A DNA stretch of 64,000 nucleotides, taken from the NCBI GenBank assembly GCA_002380425.1, contig DFUR01000035.1:27668-91667 (forward strand). The letters are read 5' to 3'. Both the position numbers and the translations under genes were made by a program. The first letter of the stretch is position 1. Every line of letters begins with the position of its first letter. This stretch comes from Bacteroidales bacterium UBA4181. Lineage in GTDB: Bacteria > Bacteroidota > Bacteroidia > Bacteroidales > UBA4181. Under the pieces are notes generated by a model that ran no database searches, was not told the origin of the DNA, and saw only the letters and a program-made list of their open reading frames with translations. This document shows positions 33,346-46,022 of the stretch, in pieces.

Positions 33346-36105
33346 ATGGAGTACCAATTTTCGGAGATTGAGGCTAAATGGCAGAAGGCATGGGAGGAGC
33401 AGGGCACCTACAAGGTGACCGAGGACCCTTCCCTTCCTAAGTTCTATGTTTTGGACATGTTCCCGTACCCATCCGGGGCGGGTTTGCATGTGGGGCATCC
33501 CCTGGGATACATTGCCTCGGATATCTATGCCCGTTTCAAGCGGCTCAAGGGGTACAATGTATTGCACCCCATGGGGTATGATGCTTTTGGCCTTCCGGCC
33601 GAGCAATATGCCATACAGACGGGGCAGCATCCCTCTGAGACTACCCGGAAGAATGCCGCACGATATCGGGAGCAACTCGATAAAATCGGGTTTTCCTTTG
33701 ACTGGTCCAGGGAAGTGCGGACCTGTGACCCGGCGTATTACCGGTGGACCCAGTGGGCCTTCATTCAGATGTTTCATTCCTGGTATAACAAGGAAACCGA
33801 CAGGGCAGAACCGGTGGCGCAACTCGTTGCACTGTTCGAAAAGCAGGGAAACCGGGAGGTGCCTGCCGCACATTCCTGTCCCGTGGTGTTCACGGCAAAG
33901 GAGTGGAAGGCTATGGATGAACCACAACGCATGAAGATACTGCTGGATTATCGGCTGGCGTATCTGGCCGACACCATGGTGAACTGGTGTCCGGGTCTGG
34001 GTACGGTGCTGGCTAATGACGAAGTCAAAGATGGGGTGTCGGTTCGTGGCGGCCATGTGGTACTCCAGAAACAGATGAAGCAGTGGTCGCTCCGAATCTC
34101 TGCCTATGCGCAGCGGTTGCTTGATGGGCTGGACCAGGTGGAATGGACCGAGTCCCTCAAGGACATTCAGCGACACTGGATTGGCCGGAGCGAGGGCGCC
34201 GAGGTGTTCTTCCCCGTTCGCGGGCTCAAGGAGTCCATGCTGATTTACACCACCCGTGCCGACACCATGTTCGGGGTGACCTTCATGGTGCTGGCCCCCG
34301 AGAGTGAATGGGTGCAAAAGGTAACTTCACCCGAACAAAAAGCTGCCGTTCAGGAATACCTGGAACAGGTCAGCCACCGCAATGAGCGCGAACGTCAGGC
34401 GGAAACCCGGACTATGACCGGGGTCTTCACCGGGGGGTATGCCCTCAATCCTTTCTCCGGCAAGGAGGTTCCCATCTGGGTCAGTGATTATGTTCTGGCG
34501 GGATACGGCACCGGGGCGATTATGGCTGTTCCGGCCCATGACAGCCGCGACTATGTCTTTGCCAAAACCTTCGGTCTCCCCATCGTCCCCCTCATCGAAG
34601 GGTGCGATGTCTCCACGGAGAGTCTGGATGCCAAGGAAGGGATTATGATGAACTCGGGCTTTCTCAACGGGAAGACGGTAAAGGAGGCCATCCCGATAGC
34701 CATACGTGAGGTGGAAGCCCGCGGAATCGGACGCCGCAAGGTCAATTACCGGCTGCGCGATGCCATTTTCAGCCGCCAGCGGTACTGGGGCGAACCCTTC
34801 CCCGTCTATTACCGGGAGGGGATTCCATATACTGTGGAGGAGAAGGATCTCCCGGTAGTGCTGCCTGAGGTGGATGTTTATCTCCCCACTGAGGCCGGGG
34901 ATCCGCCTCTGGGCCGGGCAAAGGACTGGACATACAAGGGCTATCCCATGGAGCTCAGTACCATGCCAGGGTTTGCAGGCTCTTCGGCCTATTATTTCCA
35001 TTACATGGATCCGGGGAACCCCCACCGTCTGGTTTCAGAGGATGCTGTCCGCTATTGGAAGAGTGTTGATTTGTATGTGGGAGGTACCGAGCATGCCACA
35101 GGACACCTCATTTACAGCCGGTTCTGGTGTAAATTCTTGTATGATATCGGAGTTGTCCCCGAGGACGAGCCTTTCAGGAAGTTGATCAATCAGGGCATGA
35201 TACAGGGGCGTTCAAATTTTGTGTATCGCGTTCGGGGCACCAACCAGTTTGTTTCGTTGCATCTCAAGGACCAGTACGACACTACGGAGCTCCATGTGGA
35301 TATTTCACTGGTGCAGAACGATGTGCTGGACATCGAACGCTTCAGGGCGTGGTCCCCTGACTATGCCGATGCGGAGTTCATTCTGGAGGACGGTAAGTAT
35401 GTCTGCGGATGGGCGGTGGAGAAGATGTCCAAGTCTATGTACAATGTGGTCAACCCCGACGAAGTCGTGTCCCGGTATGGTGCCGATACCCTGAGAATGT
35501 ACGAGATGTTCCTGGGCCCCGTGGAACAGTCCAAACCCTGGGATACATCCGGGATAGAGGGAGTGCACAGGTTTCTGAAGAAATTTTGGAATCTGTTCCG
35601 GGACCGAAGCGGCGCGTGGTGTGTGGAGGATGTGGCCCCCACAGAGAAGGAACTGAAGATTCTGCATCGCACTATGGCCAGGATAGAGAACAATATTGAG
35701 CAGTTTTCTATGAATACCGCTGTGAGCAGTTTCATGATTTGTGTCAACGAACTTCAGGAACTGCGTTGCTGCAAACGACAAATCCTGGAACCCCTGCTGG
35801 TGACCCTGGCTCCCTTTGCTCCTCACATCACCGAGGAACTCTGGCACAGGCTGGGACACACCGCAAGCATTCACCAGGCCACGTTCCCTGTGGCCGATGT
35901 AAAATATCTGGTGGAGAATGAGTTTGCATACCCGGTGTCGTTCAACGGGAAGACCCGCTTTACCCTCACCCTGGGATTGGATCTGGACCGTGATGCGGTG
36001 GAGCAAGCCGTTTTAACTGATGCCAACACGCTGAAATACCTTGACGGAAAACCCGTCAGGAAGGTGGTCGTGGTTCCGGGAAGGATCGTGAATATTGTAT
36101 TTTAG
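33346..36105 (+). CDS. leuS: Leucine--tRNA ligase.
   Basis: 919 aa. HIGH motif ([10 protein letters not shown]), the CP1 editing domain, and KMSKS (EKMSKSMYN). Confidence 0.95.
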
Positions 36106-36992
36106 CCCCTTAGCGCCGCAGCGCCACTGACGATTTCGGAAATCTCGTTGGTGATTGCTGCCTGGCGTGCCTTGTTGTATTGCAGGGTAAGGTCGCTGAT
36201 GAGCTGGGTGGCGTTGTCGGTGGCTTGTGTCATGGCCGTCATCCGCGCACCATGTTCTGATGCGGCTGAGTCAATCAGTGCTTTGTATATCTGCAACTTA
36301 AGGGTTTGAGGAATCAACTCTCCCAGAATGATGGCCGAGTCTGGTTCAAAGAGGTAATCGGGCCGGATGCCACTCTGGTCCTTGGTGCTTGCTGCTGAGG
36401 GTTTCATCTTCAGAGGCAGAAACTGTTCAGAGGTCACCCGGTGCAACGAGGCGTTTTGGAATTGGCTGTAAACCAAATCAATGCGTGAGTATTCCCCGGT
36501 GGAAAATGCTTCCATAAGCTGGGCAGCCAATGCCACAGCCTGTTCAAAGGAAGGGGTGTCGGTACATTGCACGCTTGCTTTTGCCAGGGGGAAGCCTTTC
36601 TTGCGCAACAGGTCGGACCCTTTCTTTCCGATGGCCAGGAAGTCAGTCTTTTGGTGCTGGGGCTGCCCGGCGAAGGTTCCGGCGAGCTCAATAGCCTTAC
36701 GCACGATATTCCCGTTCAGGGCTCCGCACAGGCCCCGCTGCGAAGTGATGGTCACGATCAGAACCCGTTCGGGAGCTCTCTCGGTGAGCAGCGGATGTTC
36801 CAGAGACTCGCCCAGATTTTCCGTTACCCGGCCCAGAATCTGCTGCATCCGGTTGGCGTAAGGGCGTAAGCGGATTACCCGGTCCTGAACCTTCCGAAGT
36901 TTGGCGGCAGCCACCATTTTCATGGCCGAAGTAATCTGGCGGGTGGACCGGACTGAGACGATGCGCTGTTTGATCTCCTTTTGGCTGGCCAT
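36102..36992 (-). CDS. atpG: F0F1 ATP synthase subunit gamma.
   Basis: 296 aa. N-terminus [34 protein letters not shown], and C-terminus [24 protein letters not shown]. Confidence 0.93.
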
Positions 36993-36994
36993 GG

Positions 36995-38572
36995 TTACTT
37001 GTATTTTTCAGCGATCTGGAGGGCAACGCGTTCCAGGGTGTCTGCCAGCTCATCATTCCAGTTTCCCTTGCGGAGTTCGCCAAGGACTTCCCTGTGGCTG
37101 TTTTCGAGGTATCCCAGAAAGTCATCCTGAAACTCCCGCACTTTGTTTTCAGGAACCGATTTGAGCAGGCCCCGGGTACCGCAGAAGATGATGGCCACCT
37201 GATGCTCGACGCTCATGGGGGCATGGAGCCCCTGTTTGAGAATCTGCACATTCTTCCGGCCCTTATCGAGAATGGACATGGTAGCGGCATCAAGGTCTGA
37301 TCCAAATTTGGAGAAAGCCTCTAGTTCCCGGAATTGGGCCTGGTCGAGCTTGAGGGTCCCTGCCACCTTTTTCATGCACTTAATCTGGGCATTTCCACCC
37401 ACCCGGGACACCGAAATCCCCACGTTGATGGCAGGTCGGATACCGGCATTGAACAGGCTCGATTCGAGGTATATCTGCCCGTCCGTGATGGAGATAACAT
37501 TGGTGGGAATGTAGGCGGACACGTCCGAGGCCTGGGTTTCGATGATGGGTAGCGCGGTGAGGGAACCCCCGCCTTTGACTTTGTCGCGCAGGGCATCGGG
37601 CAGGTCATTCATCTGGGCCGCCAGTTCATCAGACTCAATAATCTTTGCCGCTCTTTCGAGCAGGCGGGAATGCAGGTAAAAGACGTCTCCCGGGTAGGCT
37701 TCCCTTCCGGGCGGGCGGCGCAGCAACAGAGACACTTCCCGGTAGGCAACGGCCTGCTTGGAGAGGTCGTCGTAAATCACCAGAGCCGGACGGCCTGTGT
37801 CGCGGAAGTATTCCCCGATGGTGGCCCCGGCAAAAGGAGCAAAATACTGAAGAGCGGCGGGATCAGAGGCCGTGGCTGAGATAATCACGGTGTAGGGCAT
37901 GGCCCCGTATTCCTCCAGAGTCCTGGCGATGCCTGCAACCGTGGAACCCTTCTGTCCCACAGCTACATAAATGCAGTACACCGGTTTGCCCTGCTCGTAG
38001 AATTCTTTCTGGTTGATGATGGTGTCCACCGCAATGGACGTTTTCCCGGTTTGCCGGTCCCCGATGATGAGTTCCCGCTGGCCGCGGCCGATGGGAATCA
38101 TGGCGTCGATGGCCTTGATCCCGGTCTGCAGGGGCTCCTTCACCGGCTGCCGGTAAATTACCCCGGGGGCTTTCCGTTCCAGGGGAAGCTCCATGCGTTG
38201 TCCTCCGATCGGACCTTTTCCGTCCAGAGGGTCCCCGATGGTGTTGATCACCCTACCCAGCAGGCCTTCGCCAACTTCGATAGAGGCAATCCTCCGGAGT
38301 CTTTTCACCTGGTCCCCTTCGCGCACTTTTTCGGAAGAACCCAACAGTACGGCTCCGACATTGTCTTCTTCGAGGTTCAGCACAATTCCCTTGATGCCGC
38401 TCTCGAATTCAATCATCTCGTTCGATTCCACATTCATCAGCCCATATATACGGGCAATACCGTCACCCACCGTGAGGACGGTTCCGACCTCTTCGAGTTC
38501 TGCTTCGGTTTTGAATCCTTCTATCTGCTGCCTGAGGATTTCGGATACTTCTGAGGGTTTGATATTGATCAT
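36995..38572 (-). CDS. atpA: F0F1 ATP synthase subunit alpha.
   Basis: 525 aa. Walker [10 protein letters not shown], plus [22 protein letters not shown]. Confidence 0.96.
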
Positions 38573-38595
38573 GACATTCTTGGTTTTCCTGAGAT

Positions 38596-39144
38596 TTAGG
38601 ATAGGTTGCGGCGGGTGAGGGCCTGCTGGATTTTCTTGAGTCCGGAGGCAATGCTGGTGTCGTAGCGGTCGTCGCCCACCCTGAGGACGTATCCGCCCAT
38701 CAGCTCCGGATCCTGGCGGAATTCCATGTCCACGATGGACTGGTAACTTGCTTCGACCGCAGTCCGGATGGCCTGCGCCAGTTCGTCTGTGACGGGGACA
38801 GCCGTGGTGCAGACGGCCGAGCGGATGCCCCGGGTTTCACGGGCCATGCGCAGGAAACTGCGGGCAATATCGGGGAGCAACGCTTCGCGTCGGTTTCTGG
38901 CCAGCAGGGAGAGGAATCCCATGGAGGCCGCGGAGATGCGGGAGCCGAAGATAAGTTGCAGGGCACGGGCCTTACCGGAGGAACGCACGACAGGGTTGCC
39001 CAGTAGCAGGCTGAGTTCCCCTGAAGCGGCTATTACTCCGGAAATCAGCTCCATATCCTGCTCCAGTGGCTCCAGTTGTTCCTGAGCCTTGCCGATACTC
39101 AGCAAGGCCCGGGCATATCTCACCGCGATGATGCTTTCGTTCAT
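38596..39144 (-). CDS. atpH: F0F1 ATP synthase subunit delta (OSCP).
   Basis: 182 aa. [11 protein letters not shown] at the N-terminus and [23 protein letters not shown] at the C-terminus. Its position between atpF and atpA fits. Confidence 0.9.
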
Positions 39145-39147
39145 GGA

Positions 39148-39642
39148 TTAGCTCTTGTGGATGTCTGAAAGGGAGTCCTCAATCAGTTTCTTCTGTGCCT
39201 CATCCGACTGCAGTTCCCTGCGGAGCAGCCGGCTGGCGATACTCACGGAGTATTCGGCTGCAATGTTGCGGATATCCTGCAGGGCATCGGCGCGTTCCTT
39301 GAGGATGACCTTTCGGGCGTCCTCGATGATGGAGGCTTTCTCTTCCCGGGCCTGCTCTCTGGATTCCGAGAGGATCTGCTCTTTGAGTTCGCGGGCTTCC
39401 TTCAGAATTTGTTCTTTTTGGCGTCGGGCCTCGGCCATCATGCGCTCATTCTCCTGGCTCAGTTTGTCCAGGGCTTCCTGTGCATTCCTGGCGTTCACCA
39501 GAGCTTTACTGATAGAATCTTCCCGTTCCCGGAGCATATTCAGGATAGGCTTCCAGGCCAGATGTTTCAGAAGGAAGAACACGATCAGGAACGTAAGCAG
39601 CATCCAGAACAATGTTCCCCAGTCGGGAGTGACAATACCCAT
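39148..39642 (-). CDS. atpF: F0F1 ATP synthase subunit b.
   Basis: 164 aa. A single N-terminal TM helix (LFWMLLTFLIVFFLL) is followed by a long charged coiled coil. Confidence 0.9.
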   Translation of the reverse strand: MGIVTPDWGTLFWMLLTFLIVFFLLKHLAWKPILNMLREREDSISKALVNARNAQEALDKLSQENERMMAEARRQKEQILKEARELKEQILSESREQAREEKASIIEDARKVILKERADALQDIRNIAAEYSVSIASRLLRRELQSDEAQKKLIEDSLSDIHKS

Positions 39643-39718
39643 ATCTGTGACGGTTAATGATGTTCAAAAAAGCTTTGCAGGGGGCCAACCGCCCGGCCTG
39701 CAAAGCATAGTTCCATGC

Positions 39719-40009
<291 letters not shown>

Positions 40010-41149
40010 CTAATGAACAGATTCATGCACTTCGTGCTCCTCCACAGCCATCCCGAAGTACAAAGCGGAAAGCAGGGTGAAGACATAAGCCTGGATAATC
40101 CCCACCAGCAGTTCAAGCAAGGTCATGAAGATGGCAAAGGCCAGCGATACTGGAGAGGCAACCATGCCCAGCATGGGGCTGATGGCTCCAAACACGAAGA
40201 TCAGGCTGAAGAAGCCGAGCATCACGATATGCCCCGCGGTGATGTTGGCAAAAAGCCGGATCATCAGTACGATGGGCTTGGTGAAAACCCCCACGATTTC
40301 CACGATGGGCATCAGAGGTACCGGAATTTTGAGCCACCAGGGAACTCCCGGAGTATTGAAGATGTGTCCCCAATAGGACTTGTTCCCGCTGAACAGGGTG
40401 ATCCCGAAAGTGATCAGCGCCAGGGCCATCGTTACAGCAATGTTCCCGGTGACATTCGCTCCGCCCGGAAACAGGGGAATGAGTCCCATGATGTTGTTGA
40501 TCCAGATAAAGAAAAACACCGTGAGCAGGTAGGGCATGTAACGGGCGTAGTGCTTGCCGATGAGGGGCCGGGCAATGTCATCCCGCACAAAAAGGATAAA
40601 CACCTCCAAGGCGTTCTGCATCCCCGAGGGCGCTCCGTCAGGGTATCGGCGGTAGCGGCGGGCAAGCCAGAGAAACAGGGATACCAGCAGGATCATGCTG
40701 ATAAACATGGCCATCACCGTTTTGGTGATGGACAGGTCCACAGGTCTGGACACTCCTTGGGGAGTGTCTTCCACAATTTCTCCCTCGTACTGCTCCTCAG
40801 TTGCAAGCCGAAAACCCTCAAACGTGTGGCCATGCGCCAGGCGGGCGGAAGAGAATACATGGAGGCCGGAGTGGCTGCTGAACAGGATGACGGGCAGCGG
40901 AATGCTGATGTGGTGGGCGTGGACGGTAAGGATGTGCCAGCTGTAGGCGTCTTCAACATGCTCAAAGATAAAGGCACCGGCATCGAACCCTTTTTCCGGA
41001 GCCTCTGAGGAAGTCTCAGTAGCGGATGCAGACAATAAAACCGGGCACAGCAGGAGCCACCCCAGCAGTGTCAGCTTCAGAAGACTCCATGACCATTCAG
41101 ACCTTCCCTTAATCATTCGGAATGAAATAAAACCCCCGAATATACTCAT
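40010..41149 (-). CDS. atpB: F0F1 ATP synthase subunit a, with a long N-terminal extension.
   Basis: 379 aa. The C-terminal region shows LMIRLFANITAGHIV (the essential Arg) and LLVGIIQAYVFTLLSALYF. An alternative start is ATG 41116. Confidence 0.9.
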   Translation of the reverse strand: MSIFGGFISFRMIKGRSEWSWSLLKLTLLGWLLLCPVLLSASATETSSEAPEKGFDAGAFIFEHVEDAYSWHILTVHAHHISIPLPVILFSSHSGLHVFSSARLAHGHTFEGFRLATEEQYEGEIVEDTPQGVSRPVDLSITKTVMAMFISMILLVSLFLWLARRYRRYPDGAPSGMQNALEVFILFVRDDIARPLIGKHYARYMPYLLTVFFFIWINNIMGLIPLFPGGANVTGNIAVTMALALITFGITLFSGNKSYWGHIFNTPGVPWWLKIPVPLMPIVEIVGVFTKPIVLMIRLFANITAGHIVMLGFFSLIFVFGAISPMLGMVASPVSLAFAIFMTLLELLVGIIQAYVFTLLSALYFGMAVEEHEVHESVH

Positions 41150-41154
41150 TTCTC

Positions 41155-41562
41155 TTACTGGTTGGAATTTGGTTTTTCGTTTTTTAGAAAAATTAACGTA
41201 CTGACCACGTCAAAGATTCCGAAGAGGAAGTAAGCTGACACAAAGGTGAGCAGGAAGGGCACGGCATACTCCCGGTAGAACCACAGATAGCCCACCATAT
41301 AGGCCAGATAGAGGAACAGCTTCACCGTGGTGCTGACCATGAAGGTCCGGGTAAAATTCCCTGGATTTTTTGCCAGGGTCCGCCTCAGGGCGATGTGTCC
41401 TGCCAGAGTGGTGAGCCACATGAGCAGCAGCGGAATCGCCAGCCCGGGGAAGGAATAGGCCTTGAGCCATATCATATAAAGCAATTCCAGACAAATTACC
41501 AGGGTGAAGGTGAAGAGCATCAGGATGCGGGCATACTTCCGCAGGGTAATGGATTTATTCAT
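41155..41562 (-). CDS. Small 4-TM membrane protein, AtpI-like (ATP synthase protein I-like).
   Basis: The ORF is 41155..41688. The start is placed at ATG 41562 (MNKSITLRKYARILMLFTF...). Four hydrophobic helices sit immediately upstream of atpB. The family call rests on position and topology only. Confidence 0.55.
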   Translation of the reverse strand: MNKSITLRKYARILMLFTFTLVICLELLYMIWLKAYSFPGLAIPLLLMWLTTLAGHIALRRTLAKNPGNFTRTFMVSTTVKLFLYLAYMVGYLWFYREYAVPFLLTFVSAYFLFGIFDVVSTLIFLKNEKPNSNQ

Positions 41563-41773
41563 GAGGATGGTTTTTGTCGGGAGTGCGTACCGCAATGTAG
41601 ATGGCCAGTGCGATGGCTCCTGCGGAAAGGAGTATGGTACAGACCGGGATGGTCCATCCCAGCCATCGGTCGAGTTTGACGCCGCCAACTACCCCGGCGA
41701 GGATGACCACCAGCATCTGAATGGCCAATCCGGAGTATCGTTCGTAGGGATTTCTATGCGGGGAGGAGTTCAT
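41555..41773 (-). CDS. AtpZ/AtpI-family small membrane protein (putative F0F1-ATPase accessory subunit).
   Basis: 72 aa from ATG 41773: MNSSPHRNPYERYSGLAIQMLVVILAGVVGGVKLDRWLG...ILLSAGAIALAIYIAV, giving two TM helices. It overlaps the downstream gene by 8 nt and the upstream bactofilin gene by 20 nt. Confidence 0.6.
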   Translation of the reverse strand: MNSSPHRNPYERYSGLAIQMLVVILAGVVGGVKLDRWLGWTIPVCTILLSAGAIALAIYIAVRTPDKNHPHE

Positions 41774-42134
41774 CGGCAGGAACAGCCGTCTGCTGTTCTT
41801 CCATATTGCACTGGCCATTGAACTGGCAGCCCGGCTCAATCTGTATTTTCTGCACAAATACATTGCCTTTGAGGACCGCGCTGGCCCGCATGGTGAGTTC
41901 GGAGGCAAAGATCTTTCCCTCCACTTTGCCGAATACATCCGCATGCCGGCAACGGATGACCCCGTAGATCTGGCTGGACGGGCCGAGGACAACGCGGGCC
42001 TCGGTGTCCAGATTCCCATGGAGAATTCCGTCAAAACGGATGTTCGCACCCGAACGGATGTCCCCTTTGATTTCTGTTCCTGCAATGATGTTACTCAGCG
42101 AATTGGGGCTTTCAGCCACTTCTGTTTTTGCCAT
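41754..42134 (-). CDS. Bactofilin (polymer-forming cytoskeletal protein, DUF583).
   Basis: The ORF is 41754..42158. The start is placed at ATG 42134 (MAKTEVAES...), downstream of the -7 box. Beta-helical repeats are typical of the family: IIAGTEIKGDIRSGANIRFDGILHGNLDTEARVVLGPSSQIYGVIRCRHADVFGKVEGKI. Confidence 0.8.
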   Translation of the reverse strand: MAKTEVAESPNSLSNIIAGTEIKGDIRSGANIRFDGILHGNLDTEARVVLGPSSQIYGVIRCRHADVFGKVEGKIFASELTMRASAVLKGNVFVQKIQIEPGCQFNGQCNMEEQQTAVPADELLPA

Positions 42135-42155
42135 ACCCTGTGAAATTTCGGATAA

Positions 42156-42163
42156 CAAACCTA
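42156..42163 (-). promoter_or_regulatory. -7 promoter box (TAGGTTTG on the minus strand) for the bactofilin-atpZ-atpI-atpBEFHAG operon.
   Basis: The plus strand reads CAAACCTA, an exact TAnnTTTG on the minus strand, 22 nt upstream of ATG 42134. Confidence 0.5.
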
Positions 42164-42220
42164 CAAGTTTTTTTTAGATTCCCGAAACAGCTCGCAGGCT
42201 TTTTTCTATCTTTCGGGCTT

Positions 42221-42260
42221 ATATAAAGAAAAACAGGGAAGCATCACTGCTGCCCTGTTT
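42221..42260 (-). terminator. Orphan intrinsic terminator on the minus strand, in the intergenic region upstream of the atp operon.
   Basis: The minus strand reads AAACAGGGCAGCA-GTGA-TGCTTCCCTGTTT, where 12 of 13 bp pair, followed by TTCTTTATAT. No minus-strand CDS lies upstream of it; the next gene (sensor kinase) is on the + strand. Confidence 0.55.
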
Positions 42261-42318
42261 CGGAAAATAACTAACTACCAACTAAAACTTAAACCTATGA
42301 AAATTTAATTAAGATGAT
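42222..42318 (-). ncRNA. Candidate small RNA or leader transcript (~95 nt), defined only by the orphan promoter and orphan terminator.
   Basis: A -7 box TACTTTTG (42325-42332, minus strand) is followed ~60 nt later by the terminator hairpin and U-tract. There is no plausible ORF (the longest is 12 codons, inside the hairpin). No Rfam family was recognised. Confidence 0.25.
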
Positions 42319-42324
42319 GTACTG

Positions 42325-42332
42325 CAAAAGTA
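42325..42332 (-). promoter_or_regulatory. Orphan -7 promoter box (TACTTTTG on the minus strand).
   Basis: The plus strand reads CAAAAGTA, an exact TAnnTTTG on the minus strand. It lies 190 nt upstream of the bactofilin start and upstream of the orphan terminator. Confidence 0.35.
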
Positions 42333-42408
42333 ACTATTTAATCGTTTCAGCGAACACTTTCTTCGTTAAAGTTTGTTAAATGAATTTTTTGCCCCACGGT
42401 GCATTTCT

Positions 42409-42416
42409 TATCTTTG
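42409..42416 (+). promoter_or_regulatory. -7 promoter box (TATCTTTG) for the two-component operon.
   Basis: Exact TAnnTTTG match. It lies inside the maximal ORF (GTG 42399), which argues for a downstream start codon. Confidence 0.45.
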
Positions 42417-42440
42417 AACCGGACGGAAATTTTTGATAAG

Positions 42441-43943
42441 TTGCAGAGAGCCAGAAATAAATGGATATACGTGATGGCGGTGGTGATGAGCCTTGCGCTG
42501 GGAGGGCTGATTGTGGTTCAGTCCCTCTGGATTCAGAATGCCTACGAATCGGGCGAGGCTCAGTTCAATCTGGCCGTTTCCTCCGCCCAGCGCCATATTA
42601 TTGACGATGTCCTGGAGTTTGAACTGCTTGCTCTTCAGCGACAGGCCGATCAGCCCTTTCCCTATCTTCCCAACAGTGCCCTGCGAACTACCAGGGCGGA
42701 GCTTGACTCGATTATTCACATGGGCCGGACGCATCCGGCACCGGGGGCAGACACGCTTTCACGTAACGTTTCTGCTGGTTCTACCGGCCCGAGGTCGGGG
42801 AGAATCACTGATGTTGCCCCACTCCCCGGGGTGAACCAGTTTCGGGAACAGTACGGCTCGGCTATTGATCGCTATTATCTGAGGGCCTCCCGTGGGGAGT
42901 TGTCTCTCCAGGAACGGATCGGTAAGGAGTCCTTTGAGTATTTCATCCAGTCTGAGTTGCTCAAATCAGGGATCGATGTGCCCTATGAATATGCCGTCCT
43001 TGACTTCAGGGGCGGGGCCGTGTATCGTTCCCCGGGCTATGCGCGGGATGCTCCCTTTCGTACCTTTGAACTGCCATTGTTTGCTGGAGACCGATATGTG
43101 TTTACCCTGTATTTTCCCCACAAGGGATCCCATCTTCTGCAATCTGTTGTGCTGATTGCAGCCCTCTCCATCCTGCTGATTCTTGTCTTGGTGACCATAT
43201 TCATTGTGTCCATCTATACAATTGTGCACCAAAAGAAACTCTCTGAGATGCGGACCGACTTCATGAACAATGTTACCCATGAACTCAAGACTCCCATCTC
43301 CACCATATCGCTGGCATCCCAGATGCTTGGAGATTCTTCTATTCCCGACTCGTCCAAGAATCTGGGGCGTCTGGCCTCGGTAATCAGCCACGAGAGCAAA
43401 CGGCTGGGCAACCAGGTGGAAAAGGTGTTGCAAATGGCCATCTTTGAGAATGGTCGCATGAATCTCAGGTGGACCGTCATTGATGTAAACCAGCTTCTGG
43501 AGACGGTAGTAGAGAACGTTGCCATACAGGTCACAGACCGGAAGGGTACCATTGATTTGTATCTTGATGCTTCCCAGGCTGATATCCGGGCCGATGAGAT
43601 CCATTTTACCAATGTTTTGTTCAATCTGGTGGATAACGCCATGAAATACAGCCAGGGAGCCCCGTGTATCGAGATATTCACCCGGAACGTGGGGAAATGG
43701 TTGAGCATTTCGGTCAAGGATCGAGGCATTGGCATCCCCAAATCCGATCAGAAGCGCATTTTTGACCAGTTCTACCGGGTTCACACGGGCAACGTACACA
43801 ATGTTAAAGGATTTGGTCTGGGATTGAGTTATGTCCAGAGAATGATAGCCGCCCACAAGGGCCGGATTGAACTGGAGAGTGAGGTGGGGGTGGGAACCAC
43901 TTTTACCTTATATTTGCCATTGGTTTGCAGAACTGATAATTAA
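42441..43943 (+). CDS. Two-component sensor histidine kinase (RprX-like).
   Basis: The ORF is open from GTG 42399. I favour TTG 42441 (MQRARNKWIYVMAVVMSLALGGLIVV...), with ATG 42474 as the alternative, because the -7 box lies at 42409-42416. There are two TM segments. The H-box is HELKTPIS and the ATPase region shows DNAMKYS, DRGIGIP, GFGLGLSYV. Confidence 0.85.
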   Translation: MQRARNKWIYVMAVVMSLALGGLIVVQSLWIQNAYESGEAQFNLAVSSAQRHIIDDVLEFELLALQRQADQPFPYLPNSALRTTRAELDSIIHMGRTHPAPGADTLSRNVSAGSTGPRSGRITDVAPLPGVNQFREQYGSAIDRYYLRASRGELSLQERIGKESFEYFIQSELLKSGIDVPYEYAVLDFRGGAVYRSPGYARDAPFRTFELPLFAGDRYVFTLYFPHKGSHLLQSVVLIAALSILLILVLVTIFIVSIYTIVHQKKLSEMRTDFMNNVTHELKTPISTISLASQMLGDSSIPDSSKNLGRLASVISHESKRLGNQVEKVLQMAIFENGRMNLRWTVIDVNQLLETVVENVAIQVTDRKGTIDLYLDASQADIRADEIHFTNVLFNLVDNAMKYSQGAPCIEIFTRNVGKWLSISVKDRGIGIPKSDQKRIFDQFYRVHTGNVHNVKGFGLGLSYVQRMIAAHKGRIELESEVGVGTTFTLYLPLVCRTDN

Positions 43944-43949
43944 AGGGAT

Positions 43950-44627
43950 ATGAACAGGATTTTACTGGCTGAAGACGACTCAAACCTGGGGCTCCTGCTC
44001 AAGGAGTACCTGGAGGCGAAAGATTATGTTGTGGAATTGTTTCCCGACGGAGAGGCTGCCCTTGAGGGTTATCATCAACAAACTTTCGATCTGTGCATCC
44101 TGGATGTGATGATGCCCCGTAAGGACGGTTTTGCCGTCGCCAGGGAAATTCGCGCGCACAATCAGGAAATACCTCTGTTGTTTTTAACCGCCCGCTCTAT
44201 GAAGGACGATGTGCTCGAAGGGTTCCGCATCGGGGCTGACGATTATCTCACCAAGCCCTTCAGTATGGAAGAGCTCTTGTTCCGCATAGAGGCTATTCTG
44301 AGACGTACCCGGCAGGGCGGAGCCGAGCAGGGCTCACCCTATCGGCTGGGTAAGTACACTTTTGAATCCCAAAAGCAGGAGCTTGTATGCGGGGAGGTCC
44401 ACTACAAGCTCACTACCAAGGAGTCTGAATTGCTCCGGTTGCTTTGTGACAACGCCAACCAGGTGCTGGAGCGGAACTTCGCCCTGAAATCCATCTGGGA
44501 GGATGACAACTACTTCAATGCCCGAAGCATGGATGTGTACATCACCAAGTTGCGCAAGTACCTCAGGGATGAACCCTCCGTTGAGATACTGAATGTGCAC
44601 GGAAAGGGATTCAAACTAATCCGTTAA
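43950..44627 (+). CDS. OmpR-family response regulator (RprY-like).
   Basis: 225 aa. The receiver domain shows ILLAEDD...LCILDVMMPRKDG...KPF. A winged-helix output domain follows (LTTKESELLRLL...DVYITKLRKYL). Confidence 0.92.
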   Translation: MNRILLAEDDSNLGLLLKEYLEAKDYVVELFPDGEAALEGYHQQTFDLCILDVMMPRKDGFAVAREIRAHNQEIPLLFLTARSMKDDVLEGFRIGADDYLTKPFSMEELLFRIEAILRRTRQGGAEQGSPYRLGKYTFESQKQELVCGEVHYKLTTKESELLRLLCDNANQVLERNFALKSIWEDDNYFNARSMDVYITKLRKYLRDEPSVEILNVHGKGFKLIR

Positions 44628-44639
44628 TCCGGCCCGGTC

Positions 44640-46022
44640 TTAGTCCACTACGTCAAAATAGGAATTGTTCTCCCTGATTTTCACGCTGTTGTTCTCTCCA
44701 GGATGCAGTGCCAGCCCTGATTTCTCGGCTTCTCTTCCCGGCTCCTCCTGAGTTTTCTGCTTTCTTATGTAGGCTGGGGTATTCTCCAGATCATCAATGT
44801 CAAACAGTTCCTGCCGGCCTTGGGATCTGGCCCGGAGCGTGCCATCTTGCCCATATTCCGGACGTGGCTGCTGCTCAATAACGTCGTCCAGAGAATAGCC
44901 CTTCTCCACTACCGTGAAGTTGATGGTTCCCTGAGTCACCTCCATCGGCACCCTGTCCGCAGCCTTCATGCTGGCAGCTCTTTCAGCCCTTGGAATGTCC
45001 AGTACGGTGCGGATGGGCTCTCGGGCCGGGCTCAGGTCCAGTTCGGGAAAACTGTTCCCGGTGAAACTGGTAGCCACGACGGTCACCCGCAGCTCATTGC
45101 CCATACGTTCGTCGTTTCCTGCCCCCCAGATGACCGAGGCATCTCTGGCAACGGACTGGGTCACAAAGTCGGTGATTTCACCCAATTCGTCCATCGTAAC
45201 CTCGTTCTCGTCGGTTCCCGAAGTGATGTTCAGCAGTATGTTCCGGGCGCCCGAGATCTCGTTGTTGTTGAGCAGGGGAGAGGTCAGGGCTTCCTCGACC
45301 GCTCTGCGGGCACGTCCTTCGCCACTCGCGGCAGCCGAACCCATCACGGTGATGCCCCCGTTTTTCATGGTGGTCTTAACATCAGCAAAGTCCACATTGA
45401 CTTTTCCTGGGATGGTCACCAACTCGGCTATGCCTTTGGCAGCCGTGGTGAGGATGTCATCAGCGTGAGAGAATGCCTGGGACACGGGCAGGTTTCCGTA
45501 CATCTCCCTGAGTTTCTCATTGTTGATAATCAGCAAAGAGTCCACGTGGTTGCGCAGTTCCCGGATGCCGTCCAATGCCTGCCGGAATCGGATGGTGCCC
45601 TCAAACCGGAAGGGTATGGTGACAATGGCTACTGTGAGGATGTCCATCTCCCTGGCAATCTGGGCGATGACCGGGGTGGCTCCGGTTCCGGTGCCACCGC
45701 CCATCCCGGCTGTGAGGAACACCATCCGGGTATTTCCATCCAGAGCACTCCGTATGGCCTCCTGCGAGTCCATGGCGGCATCCCGCCCCACCTCGGGTTT
45801 GTTCCCTGCCCCAAGTCCTTCAGTCTGTTTGCCCAGTTTGATCTGGTTGCGCACCGGACTTTTTTGCAAGGCTTGAGCATCTGTGTTGCAGATGATGAAA
45901 TCCACATCGTGAATTCCTTGCTGATACATATAATTGACGGCGTTTCCTCCTCCGCCTCCGACCCCGATTACTTTGATGATGGGAGTGGGGTTTTCGCTCC
46001 AGCCTATGTTCAAATCGTCCAT
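44640..46022 (-). CDS. ftsZ: Cell division protein FtsZ.
   Basis: 460 aa. The tubulin signature GGGTGTGATPVIA and VIGVGGGGGNAVN are present. A long disordered linker and a C-terminal peptide follow. Confidence 0.97.
   Translation of the reverse strand: MDDLNIGWSENPTPIIKVIGVGGGGGNAVNYMYQQGIHDVDFIICNTDAQALQKSPVRNQIKLGKQTEGLGAGNKPEVGRDAAMDSQEAIRSALDGNTRMVFLTAGMGGGTGTGATPVIAQIAREMDILTVAIVTIPFRFEGTIRFRQALDGIRELRNHVDSLLIINNEKLREMYGNLPVSQAFSHADDILTTAAKGIAELVTIPGKVNVDFADVKTTMKNGGITVMGSAAASGEGRARRAVEEALTSPLLNNNEISGARNILLNITSGTDENEVTMDELGEITDFVTQSVARDASVIWGAGNDERMGNELRVTVVATSFTGNSFPELDLSPAREPIRTVLDIPRAERAASMKAADRVPMEVTQGTINFTVVEKGYSLDDVIEQQPRPEYGQDGTLRARSQGRQELFDIDDLENTPAYIRKQKTQEEPGREAEKSGLALHPGENNSVKIRENNSYFDVVD

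Follow-up and report, generated by a model that had tools for sequence, protein, structure and literature searches.

Our analysis of a 64,000-nt stretch of the genome of Bacteroidales bacterium UBA4181 (contig DFUR01000035.1; here, the window) points to a small RNA (sRNA) gene that lies back to back with a two-component system of the rprX-rprY type. It is probable that this RNA gene is functional, stands alone, and is linked to rprXY. We also consider quite likely the fuller explanation, in which the sRNA gene forms a divergent unit with rprXY, a direct repeat between the two promoters is a binding site of RprY, and the RNA acts in trans. Control of the sRNA gene by RprY, taken as a claim of its own, has roughly an even chance of being correct. 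The finding is best centred on the rprXY-sRNA divergent unit at positions 42222-42416 (Table 1); the bactofilin-ATP synthase operon on the other side is a separate transcription unit and is a neighbour only in some lineages. The unit lies in an intergenic gap of 339 nt (42135-42473) between the bactofilin ATG (42134) and the ATG of the divergent kinase gene (42474), a correction of the 300 bp given in an earlier annotation of this sequence (here, the original prediction). The description of this gap as the largest in the window is plausible but not rigorous: with crude maximal open reading frames (ORFs) it ranks second, and the bigger one is probably coding.

By themselves, the motifs in the gap are weak evidence, and it is their conservation that is decisive. 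We compared the window with L084 (a 21.8-kb Logan contig reached via a cluster member), L001 (truncated), and, reached through homologues of the kinase, L106, L102, and L107. The lineage is thinly sampled; the closest AtpB in the one-genome-per-species GTDB set is 61% identical, and the relatives in the protein index comprise only the same species plus one group at about 75% identity. The same species occurs in many digester metagenomes, and its copies there show no differences in this region; because all copies of the window species are identical, strain-level polymorphism is uninformative. An apparent indel in one locus (L098) was rejected as a scaffold gap of Ns. The counts given below for five lineages cover the loci that were fetched.

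L084 has the same layout as the window (kinase, gap, bactofilin), and the sRNA block is the most conserved segment of the 8 kb common to the two, with 97% identity over 96 nt (42317-42222) and an exact run of 74 nt (42320-42247). For comparison, the identity is 80% for atpE, 78% for atpA, 56% for the bactofilin gene, and 40-65% for the flanking intergenic DNA; third codon positions of the five atp genes are saturated (44%), and second codon positions of atpA are 94.5% identical. The identity starts at A 42320, 4 nt downstream of the -7 box TACTTTTG, and continues through the terminator with one loop change. The -7 box is itself conserved, while the next 4 nt differ between the window and L084 (CAGT versus TGAA) and the approximately 25-30 nt upstream of the box have diverged. 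This conservation pattern outlines a putative gene. Among the readings of the original prediction, an independent sRNA of about 95 nt with ends near 42318 and 42222 is thus favoured, by the conservation boundary at 42320 and by the 97% identity in a distant relative.

A more remote lineage, L106, whose kinase is 45% identical, shares the gene order of the window (ftsZ, rprY-rprX, gap, bactofilin) and retains a 37-nt core of the RNA exactly, together with an altered 5' end and a terminator that carries compensatory substitutions. The nhmmer E values for the sRNA are 1e-21 in L084, 2e-10 in L106, and 2e-7 in L001, and the sequence family, as delimited by such similarity, consists of the window, L084, L001, and L106. 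L102 (kinase also 45% identical) is the top non-member match of an independent hidden Markov model (HMM) and is found at the expected place (E = 0.11 in 1 Mb), and it is a probable homologue. L107, from a Williamwhitmania metagenome-assembled genome (MAG; kinase 39% identical), is a positional equivalent whose RNA may be an analogue instead of a homologue. A covariance model built from four lineages recovers its own members only, neither L107 nor anything else in 370 kb.

The RNA consists of an AU-rich 5' part, the 37-nt invariant G/U-rich core, and an intrinsic terminator. Its -7 box and the AU-rich stretch between this box and the terminator hairpin are present as originally described. An exact TAnnTTTG stands at the equivalent position in all five lineages, and the 4 nt between it and the transcript vary. 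The motif is not enriched in the window (23 found versus 19.2 expected), and the 196 nt that reach from the promoter box as far as the bactofilin start (42135-42330) do not fold unusually well (z = -1.2). The 99-nt transcript has a fold energy of -23.3 kcal/mol (z = -4.2), and its GC content of 31% compares with 54% for the window. As the original prediction stated, no protein-coding gene lies between promoter and terminator: stop codons occur in all frames in the window, and no ORF in the RNA is common to the lineages. A small protein was considered and rejected, since neither a 21-codon ORF in L102 nor a 10-codon ORF in L106 is kept in the window.

The core does not differ between the window, L084, and L106. 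It contains five to six copies of the motif AG(G)UU at a spacing of 4-7 nt, compared with 0.7 expected (P <= 0.0004); the motif occurs three times in L102 (P = 0.025) and not at all in L107. Because the 5' hairpin predicted in the window is not kept in L106, and the L106 core is predicted to be unpaired, the core is probably single-stranded. It is likely to be the functional surface of the RNA, either a seed or a protein-binding platform.

The terminator hairpin lies where the original prediction had placed it, though not as a perfect stem of 13 bp: it has 12 pairs and one C.U mismatch, owing to which a simple terminator scan passed over it. With a predicted free energy of -17.6 kcal/mol and the tail UUUUUCUUU (U-tract at 42222-42230), it is among about the five best compact terminators in the 64 kb and the sole one of these that is not at a gene 3' end. 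Across four lineages, both partners are altered in 3 of the 12 pairs, and pairing extends to 97.9% of cells, a value that falls to 42-59% once the terminator partners are slid; a non-pair (C.U or U.U) occupies the identical stem position in all four. Because compensatory changes maintain the pairing, selection appears to act at the RNA level. Of the two stems that the original prediction had proposed to check against relatives, the terminator covaries, and the second hairpin (CCCGAAA/TTTCGGG, 42181-42217), though present in the window, is absent from L084, L001, and L106. Read-through from ftsZ was considered as a reason for the terminator and is unlikely, as a strong hairpin (44416-44375) lies far nearer ftsZ.

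The original prediction overlooked a conserved direct repeat at 42365-42380 and the relation of the RNA to the divergent two-component system. On the RprY model NF051850, the regulator reaches 364.8 bits (cut-off, 370), and on the next model, PhoB, 176; because of this difference, the pair is rprX-rprY-like. By the same test, the regulators of L102, L106, and L107 are also RprY-like. The order, with the kinase gene first, is typical of the RprXY system (PMC6032018), and the operon is convergent with ftsZ, the last gene of a dcw cluster. The repeat, TTTAAC-AAAC-TTTAAC, has a 10-bp period and was matched once in the window, where 0.02 matches are expected when up to one mismatch is allowed. Its distance to the sRNA -7 box is 32-33 nt in five of five lineages, and that to the rprX -7 box is 27-28 nt in four of five; the distance to the rprX start codon is variable (64-102 nt).

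The same layout recurs in all five lineages: [T/G]TTAAC-N4-TTTAAC, 32-33 nt, TAnnTTTG, 4 nt, an ORF-less RNA of 97-126 nt, and an intrinsic terminator. This composite pattern is present at every rprX locus and at none of 88 loci without rprX. Two matches to the bare repeat elsewhere, in unrelated sequence, look like chance, and one of them is inside an ORF. The unit remains divergent from rprX even where the gene beyond it is a different one, namely, a radical-SAM gene in L102 and a convergent gene in L107. Regulators of the OmpR/PhoB type are known to recognise tandem repeats spaced by one helical turn, and the repeat described here shows both this spacing and a fixed phase relative to the promoter. 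It is a candidate RprY (OmpR/PhoB-type) site common to both divergent promoters, and this is its most likely role. RprY has been reported to bind its own promoter in Porphyromonas gingivalis (PMC5706477).

Table 1. Predicted elements of the rprXY-sRNA unit and of its flanks in the window
Feature	Positions	Strand	Remarks
rprY-like OmpR-family response regulator gene	43950..44627	+	NCBIfam NF051850
rprX-like sensor histidine kinase gene	42474..43943	+	Pfam HisKA, HATPase_c; start as in the Joint Genome Institute (JGI) gene call
-7 box TATCTTTG of the rprX-rprY operon	42409..42416	+	Conserved in L084; equivalents in L102 and L107
Tandem direct repeat TTTAAC-AAAC-TTTAAC	42365..42380	-	10-bp period; within conserved block 42360-42385
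-7 box TACTTTTG of the sRNA promoter	42325..42332	-	Bacteroidota primary-sigma type TAnnTTTG
Predicted small RNA transcript	42222..42320	-	About 98 nt; 31% GC; no ORF of more than 8 codons
Predicted RNA ends	5' end, 42320 +/- 2 (an A); 3' end, inside the U-tract	-	5' end placed by the conservation boundary and the -7 box
Invariant 37-nt core UUUUCAUAGGUUUAAGUUUUAGUUGGUAGUUAGUUAU	42267..42303	-	Identical in window, L084, and L106
Intrinsic terminator stem-loop	42231..42260	-	Arms 42231-42243 and 42248-42260; loop GUGA
-7 box TAGGTTTG of the separate bactofilin-atpZ-orf135-atpBEFHAG operon	42156..42163	-	3' of the sRNA terminator

The explanation that we prefer can be set out in a few steps, in which we infer transcription, RprY binding, trans action, and targets. 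A primary-sigma promoter with the -7 box TACTTTTG would start transcription about 4 nt downstream, at A 42320. Phosphorylated RprY would bind TTTAAC-N4-TTTAAC centrally between the two -7 boxes and would, through this common repeat, regulate the sRNA gene as well as its own operon. Via its single-stranded core, the RNA would then act in trans, either on mRNAs or on an RNA-binding protein.

Several points weigh against this explanation. Both ends of the RNA are predictions from sequence alone. The same-species copies are identical and the lineages few, so the covariation rests on four sequences, and five lineages were compared overall. L102 is tied to the family by position, promoter layout, and terminator similarity only, and the L107 RNA shows no similarity detectable by the covariance model or the HMM. 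We found no published RprY motif that would support binding to the repeat. No clear sRNA copy was seen at two further RprY-like loci from IMG/VR (L111 and L112). Finally, a target search over 109 start regions in the window and the rprX/rprY leaders of the five lineages yielded none, with scores no better than those of shuffled RNA.

In IMG/VR, a 20-mer from the core had no match, and the layout pattern had 120 random AT-rich matches, none with rprXY nearby. A metagenome scan with an sRNA 20-mer returned two chance matches; this 20-mer overran the invariant core by 3 nt and would miss L106. A metagenome scan with bactofilin peptides found no match.

Among the other explanations, one concerns the mode of action. 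The RNA might be the post-transcriptional output arm of RprXY and act as a decoy instead of by seed pairing, its invariant AG(G)UU core titrating a protein that binds single-stranded RNA; we regard this as unlikely. Protein-sequestering sRNAs with repeated short motifs are known, such as CsrB/RsmY with GGA motifs and CrcZ with A-rich motifs. The RNA described here resembles them in its five to six short, unstructured AG(G)UU motifs at 4-7 nt and in a conservation that spans the body and not just a seed of 7-10 nt. It differs in being much shorter, with fewer sites, and L107 is without the motif; this is a resemblance only. We know of no Bacteroidota protein that recognises AG(G)UU. If the decoy explanation were true, RprY activity would reset how many mRNAs are translated, or how stable they are, throughout Bacteroidales, and equivalents, so far unrecognised, would stand next to rprX in gut and oral Bacteroidota.

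It is also conceivable, though with a small chance in our estimate, that the RNA is made and acts in cis or locally, through promoter occlusion or transcriptional interference by which rprXY is balanced against the gene beyond, or through an occasional read-through that couples RprY activity to the neighbouring gene. The unit is always tightly packed between rprX and the promoter of the next gene, and in L107 the RNA differs in sequence while the layout is kept, as expected if the act of transcription outweighs its product. However, interference needs no transcript body that is near-invariant among the window, L084, and L106, and the strong terminators argue against a designed read-through. 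A comparably small chance is left for an element that works at the DNA level, that is, an extended operator, nucleoprotein site, or insulator for the rprXY promoter, in which the hairpin stops stray transcription. The block adjoins the conserved repeat and two promoters, terminators can insulate units, and the RNA itself is, like its ends, a prediction of the kind noted above. On the other hand, the compensatory changes that keep the hairpin paired indicate selection on RNA, and the conserved block starts at the predicted transcription start and is split from the repeat by a diverged spacer. A 90-nt operator lying 50-150 bp off, beyond another promoter, would be unusual, and an insulator would have no need of the invariant 37-nt core.

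The original prediction had also offered a regulatory leader with read-through control of the ATP synthase operon. In its explicit form, this would be an attenuator leader of the bactofilin-ATP synthase operon, in which stop or read-through is set by pairing with the downstream segment CUGUUUCGG; we consider it highly improbable. In the window, L084, and L106, the element immediately precedes the operon and has the same orientation. In addition, the proposed alternative pairing does exist in the window, as a complement of 9-12 nt (42179-42190 with 42255-42266), and the 12-nt complement to the terminator 5' arm at 42179-42190 is used by the minimum-free-energy fold of 42135-42330. Nevertheless, the competing segment is absent from L084, L001, and L106, as is the second hairpin. 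Attenuation by the CUGUUUCGG segment fails because the segment lies downstream of the terminator and cannot prevent termination during transcription. Moreover, the operon has a conserved -7 box of its own after the terminator. The element stays beside rprX where a radical-SAM or a convergent gene lies downstream, and about 45 bactofilin-atp loci are without it. Across genomes, the element does not accompany the operon, and no anti-terminator pairing is conserved. The leader reading is unsupported, as the element follows rprXY and the operon keeps its -7 box, and nothing was found that points to control by read-through.

A leftover terminator with a fortuitous TAnnTTTG in an AT-rich spacer, without present function, has a next to negligible chance: terminators upstream of bactofilin do belong to preceding co-directional genes in distant relatives, TAnnTTTG is not enriched in the window, and the composite repeat-plus-box pattern arises by chance in AT-rich phage DNA, but the identity is 97% although neutral sites have reached saturation, the lineage of L106 has kept the core unchanged despite a kinase only 45% identical, and the layout is the same at five of five rprX loci. 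The relic terminator of the original prediction is excluded, the block being under stronger constraint than the second codon positions of atpA.

With respect to known RNAs, an Rfam scan had been proposed with the original prediction; at gathering thresholds, Rfam 15 had no match in the whole 64-kb window. Relaxed Rfam searches of four lineages gave only inconsistent sub-threshold matches (DapZ, L20 leader, BTnc231, and FopS). BTnc231 (RF04180), located in Bacteroides thetaiotaomicron at 5366995-5367200, scored 16.8 bits (E = 0.89) in a search of 801 nt of the window, far from its threshold of 80.4; the terminator and UUUUCAUAG account for most of the match, which is not repeated in L106, L102, or L107. 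FopS (RF04319) scored 19 bits in L106 only (threshold, 56), so that the element belongs to neither family; FopS is a multicopy paralogous family, while the sRNA element was seen as a single copy both in the window and across about 1 Mb of loci. The L20 leader (RF00558) and similar models gave the best weak scores (14.6-26.1 bits, under the threshold of 58.7 bits). The likeness lies in an AU-rich stretch followed by a terminator; no infC-rpmI-rplT genes are downstream here, and the matches are driven by composition.

Validated Bacteroides sRNAs are built alike, with a promoter of the TAnnTTTG type, a terminator, a GC content of about 35%, and extended seeds that are unstructured (Ryan et al. 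2020, PMC7366714), and several are bound in single-stranded regions by the RRM protein RbpB (bioRxiv 10.1101/2023.12.22.572801). By the features used for intergenic sRNAs (PMC7366714), the element described here lies between rprX (42474) and bactofilin (42134), measures about 98 nt (within the 30-500 nt set for such RNAs), is non-coding, and has a Rho-independent terminator at its 3' end. It is thus similar to GibS, the FopS family, and BTnc231 in having its own TAnnTTTG-type promoter and a Rho-independent terminator, in a length of about 100 nt and a low GC content (31% here, about 35% there), and in a long single-stranded 5'/central stretch of conserved sequence that is followed by the terminator hairpin. 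It differs from them in lacking any sequence or structure match, in being single-copy, in its fixed rprXY linkage, and in its hosts, which are uncultured digester Bacteroidales and a Williamwhitmania MAG, not Bacteroides.

An sRNA gene that adjoins its regulator is known from Vibrio luxO-qrr1 (divergent), Pseudomonas cbrB-crcZ, and Escherichia coli cpxRA-cpxP/CpxQ with CpxR boxes. The unit described here is comparable in that an sRNA gene lies beside, and in this case divergent from, a regulator operon, with a candidate site in the common control region and, by implication, a feed-forward or feedback arm of signalling. However, Qrr and CrcZ use activators of the sigma-54/NtrC type and CpxQ is an mRNA 3' end, whereas here the regulator is of the OmpR type, the promoter is of the primary-sigma type, and the gene is free-standing; RprY control is in this case a prediction. 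In the literature, we found nothing relevant that links RprY or RprX with an sRNA. Within a comparison that leaves Bacteroides, Prevotella, and Porphyromonas genomes outside, where an equivalent may already be annotated, this is a new sRNA family of a known kind, namely, an sRNA gene coupled to a two-component system.

A few further observations concern the annotation of such loci. Gene callers run ORFs over the sRNA element, for example, in the radical-SAM calls of L102. The radical-SAM ORF is called at 326 aa in L102 and at 318 aa in L104, compared with 273 aa in L103, and the extension (3135-3294 in L102, 3135-3269 in L104) crosses the sRNA terminator and part of the RNA body. It is likely an annotation artefact that would hide the RNA gene. 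In the window, the maximal kinase ORF, from GTG 42399, takes in the kinase's own -7 box (42409-42416). At L111 (2170-2440, minus strand), where the regulator is 66% identical to the window RprY, TTAAC half-sites lie about two helical turns apart upstream of the kinase, along with a hairpin with a T-tract and no exact -7 box at the expected spacing. This region may represent a diverged form of the unit or have no relation to it.

On the minus strand next to the unit, bactofilin, AtpZ, a 135-aa protein, and atpB-E-F-H-A-G form a tightly packed operon. Its -7 box TAGGTTTG is present as originally described, at a distance from the bactofilin ATG of 21 nt instead of 22 nt. It is conserved in L084 and L001, and L106 has TATCTTTG at the equivalent place; an A-tract is also conserved between the window and L084. 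The sRNA element is absent from about 45 bactofilin-atp loci without rprXY, where any terminators belong to preceding co-directional genes (plsX-fabH or gpx). None of 80 loci from a GTDB AtpB scan, all at most 61% identical, has a similar intergenic region. The orphan terminator says nothing about ATP synthase regulation.

Some features of this neighbourhood are recorded in their own right. The F-type ATP synthase operon (36102-42134, minus strand) begins with the bactofilin gene, the atpZ ATG at 41773 overlaps the bactofilin 3' end, and the orf135 product is a membrane protein. Bactofilin-atp synteny is common: of 80 GTDB Bacteroidia loci, about 45 have bactofilin ahead of atpB. A very strong hairpin at 39672-39706 on the minus strand (-24.2 kcal/mol), with TTTTTT after it, separates atpE (c subunit) from atpF; it probably serves as an attenuator within the operon and sets the stoichiometry of the subunits. 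AtpB, the a subunit (40010-41149, minus strand), has an N-terminal extension of about 140 aa, DUF8433 (PF28541), which the listed Bacteroidia homologues conserve as well. On the far side of the unit, the ftsZ and rprY stop codons are convergent and 12 nt apart, with no space for a terminator (44375-44640). A hairpin with TTTT on the ftsZ strand, within the rprY coding region (44416-44375; -23.2 kcal/mol), might serve as an ftsZ terminator that lies antisense within rprY.

RprXY is widely conserved in Bacteroidota, and its mode of action is poorly understood. From a transposon screen, it was reported to be the only essential two-component system in Bacteroides fragilis (PMC4072883), and in P. 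gingivalis it has been tied to the sodium-pumping NADH:quinone oxidoreductase (NQR) and to stress responses (PMC5706477, PMC7002350). The divergent unit offers two concrete objects for testing, the candidate RprY box and the 37-nt invariant RNA surface. Through an sRNA gene in its control region, RprXY would gain a post-transcriptional branch.

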